Assembly (NCBI GenBank): GCA_044229975.1
Contig: JBGARZ010000003.1
Span: 576,001-640,000 of the forward strand
DNA length: 64,000 nt
Direction of reading: 5' to 3'
DNA from: Polyangiales bacterium
GTDB taxonomy: Bacteria; Myxococcota_A; Polyangia; Polyangiales; Ga0077539
The translations under genes were made by a program, and so were the position numbers. The notes below the pieces were generated by a model. The model searched no databases. It was not told the origin of the DNA and worked only from the letters and a program-made list of their open reading frames with translations. Each line of letters starts with the position of its first letter. Within the stretch, counting starts at the first letter, position 1. Below, piece after piece: positions 43,873 through 49,330 of the stretch.

Positions 43873-44556
43873 ATGCGAATCCTCGCCCTCGACACCAGCA
43901 CCGCCAGCGCGTCCGTCGCCGTCGTCGACGACGAGGTCGTCCTCGCGGAGGTCACGCGCCGACTGACCACCGGCCACGCGACGCAGCTCCTTGGGGTCAT
44001 CGAGCAGGCGCTCACCCTCGCGGGCGTCGCCCTCACGCAGCTCGACGCGCTCGCCATCGGCCGCGGTCCGGGGTCGTTCACCGGGCTGCGATCGGGCCTC
44101 GCCACCATCCGCGGCCTCACGCTCGCGACCGACCTCCCGCTGTGGGGTGTCGGCTCGCTGCGCGCGCTCGCGGCCGTCGTCGCGACGCCCGGGACGCTGA
44201 GCCTCGTGTGCACCGACGGTCGGCGCGACGAGCTCTTCGCGCAGGGCTTCGACGGCGACGACGAGTGGCTCCCGCTGCTGCACGTCGCGCCCGAGGAGAT
44301 CGGCGCGCGCGCGCTCGAAGCCGCGGGAGGGCGGCCGATCGTGGTCTGGGGCGACCTCCAGCCGACGGCCGTCGCGAGGCTCGCGACGAGTGATCGCTTC
44401 GTGGTTCGGCCACGCGCACTCGGCTCACCGAGCGGTCGTGGCGTGGCGCTGGAGGTACTCGCCGGCCGCGCCCTCCGCGACGACGGAACCATGGAGCCGC
44501 TCTACATCCGCCCCCCCGACGCGAAGCTGCCGAAGATGGTGCAGGGCGCGCGATGA
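43873..44556 (+). CDS. tsaB: tRNA t6A biosynthesis protein TsaB
   Basis: ILALDTST, GPGSFTGLR, EPLYIR. Confidence 0.95.
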   Translation: MRILALDTSTASASVAVVDDEVVLAEVTRRLTTGHATQLLGVIEQALTLAGVALTQLDALAIGRGPGSFTGLRSGLATIRGLTLATDLPLWGVGSLRALAAVVATPGTLSLVCTDGRRDELFAQGFDGDDEWLPLLHVAPEEIGARALEAAGGRPIVVWGDLQPTAVARLATSDRFVVRPRALGSPSGRGVALEVLAGRALRDDGTMEPLYIRPPDAKLPKMVQGAR

Positions 44557-45002
44557 GGGCCGTCGCGCAGCGCGTGGCGAGCGGGCGCGTGGTGGTCGCG
44601 GGCGAGACCGTGGGCGCGATCGCGAAGGGCCTGCTCGTGTACCTGGGCGTGGGCGCCGGGGACGACGAGACCGCGGCGCAGTACATCGCCGACAAGGTCG
44701 TCGGCCTGCGGGTCTTCGAAGGCGACGACGGGAGGATGACCCTCGACCTGGCGGCCGTCGGCGGCGCGGTGCTGCTGGTGTCGCAGTTCACGCTCTACGG
44801 CGACGTGCGCAAGGGTCGTCGGCCGTCCTTCGAGCGCGCGATGGAACCCGTCGCGGCGGAGGCTCTCTACCGCCGCGTGGCGGAGCTCATCCGGGCCAGA
44901 GGGGTCGTGGTAGAAACGGGGGTGTTTCGCGCGGACATGCTGGTGGAGAGCGTCAACGAGGGGCCCGTGACCATCCTCATCGACAGCACGCGCGCCTTCT
45001 GA
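44553..45002 (+). CDS. dtd: D-aminoacyl-tRNA deacylase
   Basis: MRAVAQRV, SQFTL, G.RPSF, NEGPVT. Confidence 0.97.
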   Translation: MRAVAQRVASGRVVVAGETVGAIAKGLLVYLGVGAGDDETAAQYIADKVVGLRVFEGDDGRMTLDLAAVGGAVLLVSQFTLYGDVRKGRRPSFERAMEPVAAEALYRRVAELIRARGVVVETGVFRADMLVESVNEGPVTILIDSTRAF

Positions 45003-45022
45003 AACTCCGAGGGAGGTCCACG

Positions 45023-46054
45023 ATGTCTCGCTACGTGATCCGAGGGGCGACACCGGACGACGCGACGCAGATGATGGAGCTCGCGCGGCACCTCAACACC
45101 GTCAACCTCCCGCACGACGCCGAGGCCGTCGCGGAGATCCTAGACCTGTCGCAGCGCTCGTTTTCGGGTGCGCTGAAAGACCTGCGGAAGCGGGAGTACG
45201 TGTTCGTCCTCGAAGACCTCGAAGCGGGTCGCATCATCGGGACGAGCAAGATCCTCGCGCAGCTCGGTCGGAGGGACGCGCCGTACATCTTCCTCGACGT
45301 CATCGTGGAGGAGAAATACTCGCAGACGCTCGACCGGCACTTCGTCCACACCGTGCTGCGCCTCGGGCACTCCTACGAAGGCCCGACAGAGATCGGCGGG
45401 CTCATCGTGCTGCCGGAGTTTCGCCTCGTGCCCGAGCGCGTCGGGATGATGATCTCGTACGTGCGCTTCCTCTTCATGGCGATGCACCGCGGACTCTTCC
45501 GCAACGAGGTCGTCGCCGAGCTGCTCCCGCCGCTGCTCCCCGATGGCACGAGCCATCTCTGGGAGGCGCTCGGGCGGAAGTTCACGGACATGAGCTACTC
45601 GGAGGCCGACCGGCTCTCCAAGCGCAACAAGGAGTTCATCAAGTCGCTCTTCCCCAGCGGCGACGTGTACGTGTCGCTGCTGCCCAACGACGCGCAGGAC
45701 GTCATCGGCAAGGTCGGGCGCGAGACCCGCGGCGTCGAGAAGATGTTGCGGCGCATCGGGTTCCAGTACTGCAACCGCATCGACCCCTTCGACGGCGGGC
45801 CCCACTTCCGCGCGGCCACCGACGAGATCCTGCTGGTGAAGAAGACCCGCCGCGGCCCCGTTCGACCCGTCGACGGGGTGGCGGAGGGACAGCGATCCAT
45901 CGTGGCCACCGACCTGAAGGAAGCACCGTACTTCCGCGCAACGAGCTGCCCGGCGATGGTGGCGGACGATGGCGGTGTGAGGGTTCCGCGGGCGGTGTTC
46001 CAGTTTCTCGGGGTGGCCGACGGAGCGGAGATCTCGGTGCTGCCGCTCGATTGA
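45023..46054 (+). CDS. astA: Arginine N-succinyltransferase family protein
   Basis: TEIGGL, RFLFMA, WEALGRKF, AD.LS..NKEFI, AQDVIGKV, IDPFDGGP. Confidence 0.88.
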   Translation: MSRYVIRGATPDDATQMMELARHLNTVNLPHDAEAVAEILDLSQRSFSGALKDLRKREYVFVLEDLEAGRIIGTSKILAQLGRRDAPYIFLDVIVEEKYSQTLDRHFVHTVLRLGHSYEGPTEIGGLIVLPEFRLVPERVGMMISYVRFLFMAMHRGLFRNEVVAELLPPLLPDGTSHLWEALGRKFTDMSYSEADRLSKRNKEFIKSLFPSGDVYVSLLPNDAQDVIGKVGRETRGVEKMLRRIGFQYCNRIDPFDGGPHFRAATDEILLVKKTRRGPVRPVDGVAEGQRSIVATDLKEAPYFRATSCPAMVADDGGVRVPRAVFQFLGVADGAEISVLPLD

Positions 46055-46103
46055 GATCCAGAAAGTTCACCCTGCGGCGGGCGCCCACCTACCCTGCAAA
46101 CCG

Positions 46104-46415
46104 ATGGACGCCCTCCGCGCGCGCTTCACCCTGGCGCTGCCCCTCTTCCTGCTGCTCGTCACCGTGATCGGCGTCCCGACCATGATCTTCGGCGCCAACG
46201 GTCTGCCGCGCCATCGACGACTGCGCGCGCAGCTCACGGCGCAGCTCGACGAGAACCACCGCCTCGCCACGGAGCTGCTGCGCCTGCGGTCGGAGCTCGA
46301 GGCGTTTCAGCGAGACCCGCGGGCGCGCGAGCGGGCCGTGCGCGAAGAGCTCGGCTGGGTGCGTCGGGACGAGATCATCGTGGAGATCCCGGCACAGCGG
46401 GCGCGGTCGCTGTAG
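46104..46415 (+). CDS. ftsB: FtsB/DivIC septum formation initiator
   Basis: TM, coiled coil, ERAVREELGWVRRDE. Confidence 0.85.
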   Translation: MDALRARFTLALPLFLLLVTVIGVPTMIFGANGLPRHRRLRAQLTAQLDENHRLATELLRLRSELEAFQRDPRARERAVREELGWVRRDEIIVEIPAQRARSL

Positions 46416-46659: not shown

Positions 46660-48453
46660 CTACGGAGCGAGCGACCACCGCCCCGCGAGCGGCTCCGTCG
46701 ACAGTGACGCGGCGATCGCACGGGCCGCGGCCACTCGTTCCGCCATCGGTCGATCGTCATAGAACGACACGCTCGCTGCGCCCCCGGTGATGGGCTCCAA
46801 CACTTCAGGAGCCGAGTGGATCCGCTCGTCGAGCACGATCGCGACGAGGTGGCGCACCGACGCGCGGGTGAGCGCCTCGAAGGCCCGCGCACCCTCTGGC
46901 GTAAACACGACCCGCACGTACGGACTCCCATCGTCCTCCTGCGTGAGCGCCTCGGCGGACGCGATGTGACGGTTGGTGACGGCGGGCGTCGGTTCGAGCC
47001 GGAGCGCGAAGCACCGTGACTCTGGATGGCGGGAGCTACCGCTGCAGTGGATGCGCGTGACCGCGCCGGGGGCGGACTCGGAGCGGCGTACCACGGGCGC
47101 GAGCGACTCCTCCGTCGGGCCCGCGTACACGGTCGCGTAGGGGCGACCGATGACGCGAATCGCCAGCCCCTCGATGGTCGGACCGTTCGAGGGCATGAGC
47201 GGCTCCTGATCGTCCGAAGCGCGATAGATCGCGAAGTCTCCGCGAGGTAGCAGCGACGCCACGACGGCCCGCGCGTCTCCGTCGACCACGGCCACGCGCA
47301 ACGAGATGCGACCGCCGTTGGCCTCGGCCACCTCGGCGCGGTGGTGCAGCGCGCGCAGCCGTTCGACCAGGCGCGGTGCGTCGATGGAAGCCGTCGCCTC
47401 GTCGCCGCGGAGTGAGACCGTCGTCCACGCGGGCGACGGATCGAAGGACGCGACCACGTGCGACGGGATACGCCCGCCGTGGGAGACCATGCCCGCGGCC
47501 ACGGCAGCGATACAGGCCAACGGGAGGGCGATCGCCGCCGCGAGGCTCGCGCGCGACGGGGCGTAGGGAGAGCGTTGCCGCAGCCAGCGTGCAATGAGGC
47601 CCGCGACCGCGAGACCCGCCGCGAGCTGAAGAGCGAGCGCGACGAAGGCGTGGGCGTGCCCGGCGCGCTCGGCGAGGAGGCTCACGCGCGACGCGGCGTA
47701 GAGCGGCAGCGGGAGCAGGTCGAGCGGAGACAGCGCCTGCACGCCGCGGAAGAAGCGCTGCGGCCACGAGCGCGGCGACCAGCGCCAGAGCGCGACGAGG
47801 AGCGCCATGGTCGGGACGATGGTTCCAACGACGGTGCCGGCGAAATCGAGGGCGGCGTGGTCGCGTGAAGCGGCGCGGCCGTCGGCGTAGAGCGAGGCGG
47901 CGAGCGAGAGCGTGAGTTCGGCGCACACGAGCGCCATCGGGCCGTGCGCGACGTTGGCGCGGGTGATGACGGTCGCGAGCGCCCACACGGCAGCGCCGCT
48001 GAGGGCGAAGAGGGCCATCAGGCCAGCGCGAAAGGCCCACCCAGGTTCGGCGACGAGGCTGATGTACTCGTGCGTGTGCGCGGACTCCAGCCAGATCGCG
48101 GTGCTCAGACCCTGCGTGACCATCATCAGCCCGAAGATGACGGCAGCGCGGCGGTGCCATCGCCGACGGCGTTGTTCGTCGCGGCCGTGGGTCGCGAGCG
48201 CCAGGACGGCACGCACGACGAGCACCGCGCTCAGCGCCGTCCCGACCAGCGACACGATGTGGCCGCGGCAGTACGGAGCGAAGTCAGAGGGCGACCCGAG
48301 GACGAAAGCTCGCGCGGCGTCGCGGTCGACACCCGGTAGCGGCATCGGGATGAAGTTGCCCGCCACCCAGGCGGCGAGCGCGAGCAACGCGGGCCACCAG
48401 CGGCGCGTCAGCGCGGGAGGGTCTTCGAGCGGCGGATCGCGGTAGGCGGTCAT
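46660..48453 (-). CDS. Fusion of a SecY-like N-terminal membrane region and a SecD P1-head-like domain
   Basis: IPMPLPGVD, TQG, LVAEPGWAF, ITRANVAHG (SecY-like); PYVRVVFTPEGA.AF..LT......AIVLD..IHSAPEVLEPITGG (SecD P1). Confidence 0.7.
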   Translation of the reverse strand: MTAYRDPPLEDPPALTRRWWPALLALAAWVAGNFIPMPLPGVDRDAARAFVLGSPSDFAPYCRGHIVSLVGTALSAVLVVRAVLALATHGRDEQRRRRWHRRAAVIFGLMMVTQGLSTAIWLESAHTHEYISLVAEPGWAFRAGLMALFALSGAAVWALATVITRANVAHGPMALVCAELTLSLAASLYADGRAASRDHAALDFAGTVVGTIVPTMALLVALWRWSPRSWPQRFFRGVQALSPLDLLPLPLYAASRVSLLAERAGHAHAFVALALQLAAGLAVAGLIARWLRQRSPYAPSRASLAAAIALPLACIAAVAAGMVSHGGRIPSHVVASFDPSPAWTTVSLRGDEATASIDAPRLVERLRALHHRAEVAEANGGRISLRVAVVDGDARAVVASLLPRGDFAIYRASDDQEPLMPSNGPTIEGLAIRVIGRPYATVYAGPTEESLAPVVRRSESAPGAVTRIHCSGSSRHPESRCFALRLEPTPAVTNRHIASAEALTQEDDGSPYVRVVFTPEGARAFEALTRASVRHLVAIVLDERIHSAPEVLEPITGGAASVSFYDDRPMAERVAAARAIAASLSTEPLAGRWSLAP

Positions 48454-48523: not shown

Positions 48524-49180
48524 TCAGTTCGCGCCTGCGCGGATCCAGTCTTCGACGAGCGCGATCTCGGCCGCGGTGCGCACCGCGAGCCCGTTGTGGT
48601 TGAAGCCGCAGCCGTCGGTGCGACCGCGAAGGATCGCCACGAGTGAGCTCTGCGCCGGGTCGCACGGGGCGACGTGCAGGCAGTTGCGCCCGCGCACGTT
48701 GACGAGGTTGGCGAAGGCCGTCGCGGCGCTGGTCAGCTCGAAGACCTCGCCCGGATTGCCGTGGCATCGGCTGCTGGTGGTGCAGCCCGCGGGGCGCGAA
48801 CTCGAATCGCCCATCACCGTGTCGTAGATCAACTGGAACTGGGGCGACGGAACGCCACCGTCCGCATGTGAACAGGCCGACCCGTCCGCGCTCGCACTGA
48901 CGTCGACGCCACGATCGATCGGCACGTCCATGGGCGTGGTCGCATCCGTGACGCCACTGTCGAAGCCACGATCGCCGGGGACATCCATCACCGTCGGTGC
49001 GTCGATGCTCGCGCGGTCGATGGGCACGTCGACGACACCGGCGTCACTCCCTGCATCCGCCGCGGGAACATCACTCGCGGCGTCATCGACCACCGCCGTC
49101 TCGGCGCAGCCGATGGCCATCACGACCACCATCCAGCGACCCCGCCTCGACCACCCACGCAGACCTCGACCCGTCGACAT
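48524..49180 (-). CDS. Lipoprotein with atypical cytochrome-c-like C-terminal domain
   Basis: MAIGC lipobox, acidic linker, CTTSSRCH, PCDPAQS, EIALVEDWIRAGA. Confidence 0.65.
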   Translation of the reverse strand: MSTGRGLRGWSRRGRWMVVVMAIGCAETAVVDDAASDVPAADAGSDAGVVDVPIDRASIDAPTVMDVPGDRGFDSGVTDATTPMDVPIDRGVDVSASADGSACSHADGGVPSPQFQLIYDTVMGDSSSRPAGCTTSSRCHGNPGEVFELTSAATAFANLVNVRGRNCLHVAPCDPAQSSLVAILRGRTDGCGFNHNGLAVRTAAEIALVEDWIRAGAN

Positions 49181-49330
49181 CGCGATGCTCCTCGTCCGCG
49201 TGCGTGGCCGTCGCCTCCGCGATCCGTCATCGCGCCCTTCGATTCGCCCTCCGCCGCTCACAGTGTAGGCACTCGGCCGTTTTCTTGCGGCACCGCTCCG
49301 CCCGCTGCTACCGGCCCTGCCCAGGGTGCG

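Follow-up and report, generated by a model that had tools for sequence, protein, structure and literature searches.

Why would a bacterium with a full ordinary Sec set carry a further gene built from translocon parts? The question is raised by an open reading frame at 46660-48453, on the minus strand of the window (the whole stretch of 64,000 nucleotides that was analysed), which encodes 597 amino acids. Few cellular proteins are as conserved as SecY. An earlier note, made from the letters alone, had read this protein as a degenerate chimera of a SecY-like membrane region and a SecD P1-head-like domain. Every motif quoted there is present, and both halves have the codon pattern of a gene (GC3 0.88 and 0.85). 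The AlphaFold2 model of the 597-residue protein (pLDDT 89.4, pTM 0.82) shows nine long helices and, after them, an alpha/beta domain. The features are the following, in order along the protein:

46660..48453, minus strand: whole gene (P0001), 597 aa, with a SecY N-half, four further helices and a SecD P1 domain (homologs, model)
47866..48420, minus strand: residues 12-196, homolog of SecY TM1-TM5, plug region shortened (profile, fold, BLAST)
48211..48213, minus strand: Arg81 in TM2b, aligned to E. coli SecY Ser89 (alignment)
47572..47865, minus strand: residues 197-294, helices 6-8, collinear with SecY TM6-TM8, with a short cytoplasmic beta-hairpin and the conserved motifs W230-P231 and S242-x-x-D245 (model, alignment)
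47431..47571, minus strand: residues 295-341, ninth helix and linker, probably where SecD has TM1 and its GG motif (weak profile alignment)
46663..47430, minus strand: residues 342-597, complete SecD-type P1 (base and head), predicted periplasmic (profile, fold)
47011..47046, minus strand: Cys470/Cys481 pair in a P1 insert, likely a disulfide (56/60 family members)
46729..47004, minus strand: Pfam SecDF_P1_head, residues 484-575 (Pfam)

Across the family, the predicted inner loops carry on average 1.4, 3.2, 1.4, 3.2 and 3.6 Lys plus Arg, and the outer loops 1.2, 0.3, 0.8 and 0.1. As these charges alternate, they fit the predicted topology of nine helices, with the N-terminus inside and P1 outside.

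A SecY N-half joined to a SecD P1 domain

Residues ~12-196 descend from SecY TM1-TM5, as the earlier note had claimed for the N-terminal ~200 residues. BLAST aligns residues 13-178 with the SecY of the same genome at 28% identity (E 8e-14), while profile-profile comparison of residues 12-196 with SecY N-halves gives P 99.5 and E 7e-23, and the 48-member family profile matches SecY 3dl8_G with E 8.5e-27. In the structural overlay proposed in the note, model residues 14-195 superpose on SecY 13-202 (8ya3_Y; Z 13.1, rmsd 3.3, 166 aligned). Searched alone against Pfam and NCBIfam, this protein gives no SecY match; 9/48 members match SecY weakly (best E 1.5e-5 and 1e-5). An Atlas feature search with residues 1-325 returned SecY clusters with scores up to 0.81, which we take as a lead only.

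Within the membrane domain, the N-half is best preserved. It retains the PG, LES and PGWxFR motifs, W157 (46/48) and G171 (48/48). The plug region is shortened to a median of ~25 residues from 33, shows a plug-like motif in 12/48 members and is modelled with low confidence. Position 81, equivalent to E. coli Ser89, is Arg in 32 of the 48 members and polar in 90% of them. At each of 17 membrane positions, at least 80% of 21 SecY sequences have a polar residue; in the 48 members, 11 of these positions are mostly taken by non-polar residues, including those matching E. coli Q93 and S188, and 6 are retained; this contrast is inflated, because the SecY set is closely related and the family is fast-evolving and high in GC.

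The C-terminal part had been described as P1-head-like. The head is there (Pfam SecDF_P1_head at 484-575, E 2.3e-16, above the cut-off), and it does not stand alone: residues 342-597 superpose on the whole of P1, base and head (3aqo_C; Z 18.4, rmsd 3.1, 200 aligned), and the profile-profile match to SecD spans the entire P1 (P 100, E 1.8e-39). The 48-member family profile likewise matches SecD P1 3aqo_A (E 3.8e-32). NCBIfam gives partial SecD/SecDF matches only, far under the cut-off (39.5 bits vs 244.4). All 60 members of the family end 0-15 residues after P1, where SecD TM2 would start, so that SecD TM2-6 are missing, in agreement with the note's remark that no downstream SecD helices follow. 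Cys470 and Cys481 likely form a periplasmic disulfide. The pair is present in 56/60 members. It also occurs in 26/48 hits of 240-335 residues that have no SecY part, some of which may be fragments, and in 0/24 SecD-type sequences and 0/3 other SecY-P1 fusions.

The open reading frame is therefore a real chimera of a SecY N-half and SecD P1, both parts being verified by profile and fold. A profile of 48 homologs run against 66,190 six-frame open reading frames of the genome gave three matches: the fusion gene, canonical SecY (E 2.4e-34) and canonical SecD (E 6.9e-34). That two frames might have been joined by error, or the assembly be at fault, is rejected, since the same junction recurs in homologs that are 21-45% identical to the query. 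Public sequencing runs matched with short fragments only, and no RNA run was among the matches listed.

Helices 6-9 and the docking loops

Four helices are predicted at 202-326, between the SecY-like part and P1, for a total of nine; a hydropathy scan counts 8 helices in the fusion vs 10 in the SecY of the same genome, and the model has no predicted tenth helix (SecY TM10). The likeness to SecY that the earlier note extended over residues ~15-300 holds up to ~196. Beyond that point it is not significant when residues 197-330 are compared alone with the SecY C-half, the score of 12.7 falling in the range of the controls (at most 11.8 for shuffles, 13.6 for the reversed sequence). When the full profiles are compared, helices 6-7 are in register with SecY TM6-TM7, and whole-model alignments are collinear and loose up to about residue 298 against SecY 342 (5nco_g; Z 12.2, rmsd 5.6, 235 aligned). 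A separate model of helices 6-9 (pLDDT 90.5) found no match with Foldseek; in a fold search it returned generic bundles (best Z 6.8) and no SecY among the 50 matches listed, a result that leaves room for SecY likeness. We take helices 6-9 as putative SecY C-half homologs only, since the isolated profiles are not significant; the collinearity and the loose overlap remain.

Helix 9 precedes a segment that aligns weakly to the SecD GG motif (profile 334-413 vs 3aqp 36-123). The assignment of helix 9 as SecD TM1 is putative, the isolated profile test not being significant. SecY TM1-TM8 plus SecD TM1-P1 is thus a plausible reading only of the whole protein, which is a 'half-SecY'. A candidate catalytic or proton-relay role for Asp245 was dropped, as S-x-x-D at the start of a helix would fit a helix cap.

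The inner loops that would correspond to SecY C4 and C5 are short. The helix 6-7 loop, at the C4 position, has ~21 residues vs 35 in the SecY of the same genome, and the loop between helices 8 and 9 is 11 residues long in the median vs ~40 for SecY C5, leaving no room for a C5 docking loop. According to the accessible part of PMC4602035, the C4 and C5 loops of E. coli SecY bind the ribosome, FtsY and SecA, and C5 (residue 357) contacts SecA, FtsY and uL23.

Family, related layouts and genomic surroundings

The fusion belongs to a family, as the survey of its distribution suggested in the note made clear. A word-index protein search recovered one relative only, and a full HMMER scan was needed; it gave 986 hits at E ≤0.001, of which the best 150 were judged for layout. 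A SecY-like part followed by P1 was found in 60 of these 150, the query included (414-673 aa; two partial at the N-terminus). This count leaves out P0099 and P0104, which have another layout, and P0108 (294 aa). The family alignment, from which the HMMs were built, holds 48 hand-picked full-length homologs. Full or near-full copies occur in at least 8 of 151 genomes of the order, at least 4 of 201 of the class and at least 3 of 401 of the phylum, the genome under study counting in each, and thus in at least 12 distinct carriers with a patchy distribution; as 3-9 candidates were scored per genome, these figures are lower bounds. Five same-genus genomes (91-94% complete) gave no match, and five more genomes of the order match only positions ~284-598, an anchor plus P1. 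Source labels of members include Deltaproteobacteria and Sandaracinaceae bacteria. The cluster that comes nearest in the Atlas (score 0.90) has 140 members, a length of 801 aa and a P1 head plus SecY, and is mostly from Myxococcota; together with the labels it suggests a myxobacterial source for the window. None of the curated Pfam or NCBIfam models covers the family. Eight members (P0017, P0023, P0033, P0069, P0079, P0128, P0134 and P0147) are shorter, at 476-525 aa, with a reduced P1 insert, and most of them retain the Cys pair. The copy in G023 (C11:48317-49947, L029) seems split near the P1 head and secD of this genome has an internal stop, so an assembly error is likely there.

SecY-like sequences and P1 also meet in other arrangements. 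P0099 (749 aa) and P0104 (669 aa) are SecY-DUF2007-P1 proteins, and in P0163 (817 aa) P1 comes first and SecY second, with DUF2007 recognised by eye only. The genome under study encodes P0156, a second divergent SecY paralog (G000:C20:196527-198164, plus strand, L002), with an N-terminal Cys-rich segment, a weak SecY match (E 5e-5), a weak C-terminal DUF2007 match and no P1. These proteins resemble the fusion in being divergent SecY copies, three of them fused to P1; they differ by DUF2007 (found in 0/48 members of the fusion family), by a seemingly full-length SecY-like domain, by lacking the Cys pair in the three P1 fusions and by their place on a separate branch. In a tree of 42 N-halves (24 of the family, 7 DUF2007-type, 11 canonical) each group falls on one side of a branch (99/95, 98/94 and 100/98, respectively). 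In a quick version of this tree, canonical SecY has branches several times shorter than the family's. Although the tree splits the different SecY-P1 fusions, a constraint that unites every paralog bearing P1 was not rejected (p-AU 0.166), and separate origins were not retained as a conclusion. A P1 tree left the groups unresolved, and domain order and the Cys pair are the only characters that would point to separate origins.

P1 is found as well in proteins that otherwise have just a signal or anchor segment (G081, G074, G131 and many hits of 240-335 aa). Consequently, P1 can be kept without motor or channel. Anchor-plus-P1 proteins of ~270-300 aa, with no other SecD part, lie at L030:7500-8384, L032:8039-8929 and L033:7860-8660, and lipoprotein-like versions are among the database hits for stand-alone P1. 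P0136 (762 aa) is a BlaR1/M56 peptidase fused to a SecDF P1 head. P0140 (529 aa) starts with several membrane helices of unknown family, goes on with a SecD-like P1 and ends after it.

Canonical secY and secD exist elsewhere in the genome, which has one each of secY, secD, secF, secE, secA and yidC. The secY gene lies between two open reading frames named by eye from their translations, which we take to be rplO and adk, and secD adjoins secF (C38), away from the fusion gene. With both halves verified and this gene standing alone, the description as a stand-alone, degenerate, translocon-derived protein holds. Eight other carriers were tested for the ordinary genes: a full secY was found in 6 (none in G024; G023 is 54% complete) and a full secD in 7. 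One secA was found in each of G000, G149 and G022, two fragments in G088 and none in G135, while yidC was present in 5/5 carriers tested.

The immediate neighbours of the fusion gene differ at all loci. Across 12 loci, with rough gene calls and two short loci (L009, L026), only Ser/Thr kinases and apparent Cys-rich repeat proteins were common, with no shared secF-type neighbour. Since no neighbour gene is common to the 12 loci and there is no second secA, nothing points to the special substrates imagined in the earlier note. No promoter or terminator match was found at the fusion gene. In the window, a gene at 48524-49243 (minus strand) lies 70 bp upstream on the same strand; its product is lipoprotein-like, with several Cys and a CH motif, has no Pfam match and is absent from the other loci. 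Converging on the fusion gene, at 43873-46415 (plus strand), are a TsaD-family gene (tsaB-like by eye), a D-Tyr-tRNA deacylase, an arginine N-succinyltransferase and a DivIC/FtsB-like gene. Near the G378 copy (L100:1241-2548) there are long repeats that read as runs of HV/YV.

Possible roles of the fusion

The fusion resembles SecY (PF00344, TIGR00967; 3dl8_G, 5abb_A, 8ya3_Y) in the sequence and fold of TM1-TM5, the predicted N-in orientation, the PG and PGxxF motifs, the TM4 Trp and the TM5 Gly. It differs by its nine helices, short inner loops, missing TM10, shortened plug region and loss of most polar membrane residues, by scoring under the HMM cut-off and by the position of its gene outside the ribosomal protein operon. 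SecE binding is a feature of SecY. With SecD/SecDF P1 (PF22599, TIGR01129; 3aqo, 5yhf) it shares the whole base and head, a membrane helix before them and an end at the last P1 strand, whereas TM2-6, the proton relay and a linked secF are missing and the Cys pair is added. Known extra SecY copies (SecY2) have been described as export channels with a second SecA. Like the accessory SecY2/SecA2 systems, as presented in the accessible part of a preprint (10.1101/202358), the fusion is a second SecY-derived gene besides housekeeping secY; unlike them, it comes without SecA2 and without a linked substrate gene, is not a full SecY and bears P1. Neither 'SecD' nor 'fusion' occurs in that part of the preprint.

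We tentatively favour, at somewhat less than an even chance, an explanation in which the fusion would be a periplasmic holdase, unpowered and tethered to the membrane, that works beside the normal translocon. The part derived from SecY would have ceased to be a pore and would provide an anchor and docking scaffold, while unfolded chains that emerge from the housekeeping SecYEG would be caught by the P1 head, as a holdase or passive ratchet next to it with no motor. We infer that the P1 head would still bind preproteins, that the channel would be dead and that the SecY-derived surface would dock on partners of the Sec machinery. For a protein that lacks a motor and docking loops and has fewer polar residues in the membrane, the simplest working model is a holdase on a tether or a passive ratchet, and the loss of most polar membrane residues favours a chaperone over an insertase. 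PpiD and YfgM are membrane-anchored periplasmic chaperones, and a tethered holdase at the translocon exit is the role that the fusion might have in common with them. The proposal is supported by a P1 intact in sequence and fold, by the full ordinary Sec set of the genome, by the occurrence of P1 in proteins with an anchor alone, by loop charges that fit a P1 outside and by the lack, in 60/60 members, of the proton-driven part of SecDF. In the available part of PMC5974789, this part has essential Asp and Arg residues in TM4, TM10 and TM11, and the SecDF P1 head cavity, which crosslinks to precursor proteins, is the precursor-binding site. Against it, one anchor helix suffices for P1, so that a membrane domain of ~300 residues needs a reason, for which docking is only proposed; a pure scaffold need not keep six polar positions nor a position 81 that is polar in 90%; and two relatives, P0002 and P0053, have a degenerate P1 head.

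Alternatively, the fusion could be a natural half-channel, a SecY cut to one functional half and joined to a SecD catcher, working as a one-chain, motor-free insertase or translocase; the N-half would be YidC-like, with Arg81 in a membrane-exposed groove, and the P1 head a passive ratchet on the far side. We consider such a living half-SecY unlikely, although it is the main rival. In its favour, the N-half is the best-kept membrane part, Arg81 is frequent, SecY-like sequences and P1 are fused in two other layouts, one of them reversed, which suggests coupled functions, and homology of SecY and YidC has been proposed, as stated in the accessible parts of PMC8675477 and PMC7616256. The fusion resembles YidC/Oxa1 in the common fold proposed for these and a SecY half (PMC8675477, accessible part) and in a positive intramembrane residue present in two thirds of members; it differs in descending directly from SecY, and its hydrophilic groove is putative. 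The loss of 11/17 polar membrane positions, those of Q93 and S188 among them, the absence of Arg81 in 16/48, the lack of an evident ribosome or SecA docking loop, the presence of YidC in all five carriers tested and the lack of a substrate gene travelling with the fusion gene in 12 loci argue against this half-channel. A remodelled full channel, in which helices 6-9 would be the SecY C-half, pair with SecE/SecG and export a few substrates into its own P1 head, seems improbable: the in-order alignment of the whole model to ~298 and the register of helices 6-7 would fit it, but residues 197-330 alone score within the shuffled and reversed controls, the docking loops are short, a tenth helix is not predicted and there is one secA only.

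It is similarly doubtful that the protein acts as a sensor or regulator, P1 sensing unfolded periplasmic protein or the SecY-like part titrating Sec partners so as to tune export or a stress response. The P1 head on the BlaR1/M56 peptidase P0136 indicates that the domain is reused outside export, and the patchy distribution fits a dispensable regulator; however, all inner loops are short, with no cytoplasmic output domain, and no regulator gene is common to the loci except ubiquitous Ser/Thr kinases. Least of all do we believe in a functionless relic or assembly chimera. Long branches, the lack of a match in the five same-genus genomes searched and the apparently split G023 copy could suggest decay, but 60 homologs retain the layout, the 48 aligned ones have residues in common that are invariant or nearly so, the SecY-like parts group on a single branch (99/95) and the model is confident.

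In full-text literature searches no description of such a fusion was found, and subscription papers or supplementary tables may mention one; the architecture is conserved, made of two known Sec parts, real and apparently undescribed. In one lineage, selection has maintained the N-half of SecY, the docking loops and the last helix have gone, and the preprotein-binding domain of SecD has been added without its proton motor. If the protein is a holdase, Sec parts would have been recycled into a new accessory factor, in which P1 could be studied apart from proton flow. If instead it inserts proteins, it would offer a direct test of the half-channel origin of SecY, and a living half-SecY would be a natural test of the idea that a YidC-like half-channel is the ancestor of either half of SecY. 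As the related fusions with other layouts suggest, these bacteria may have a whole set of proteins derived from Sec that is yet to be explored.
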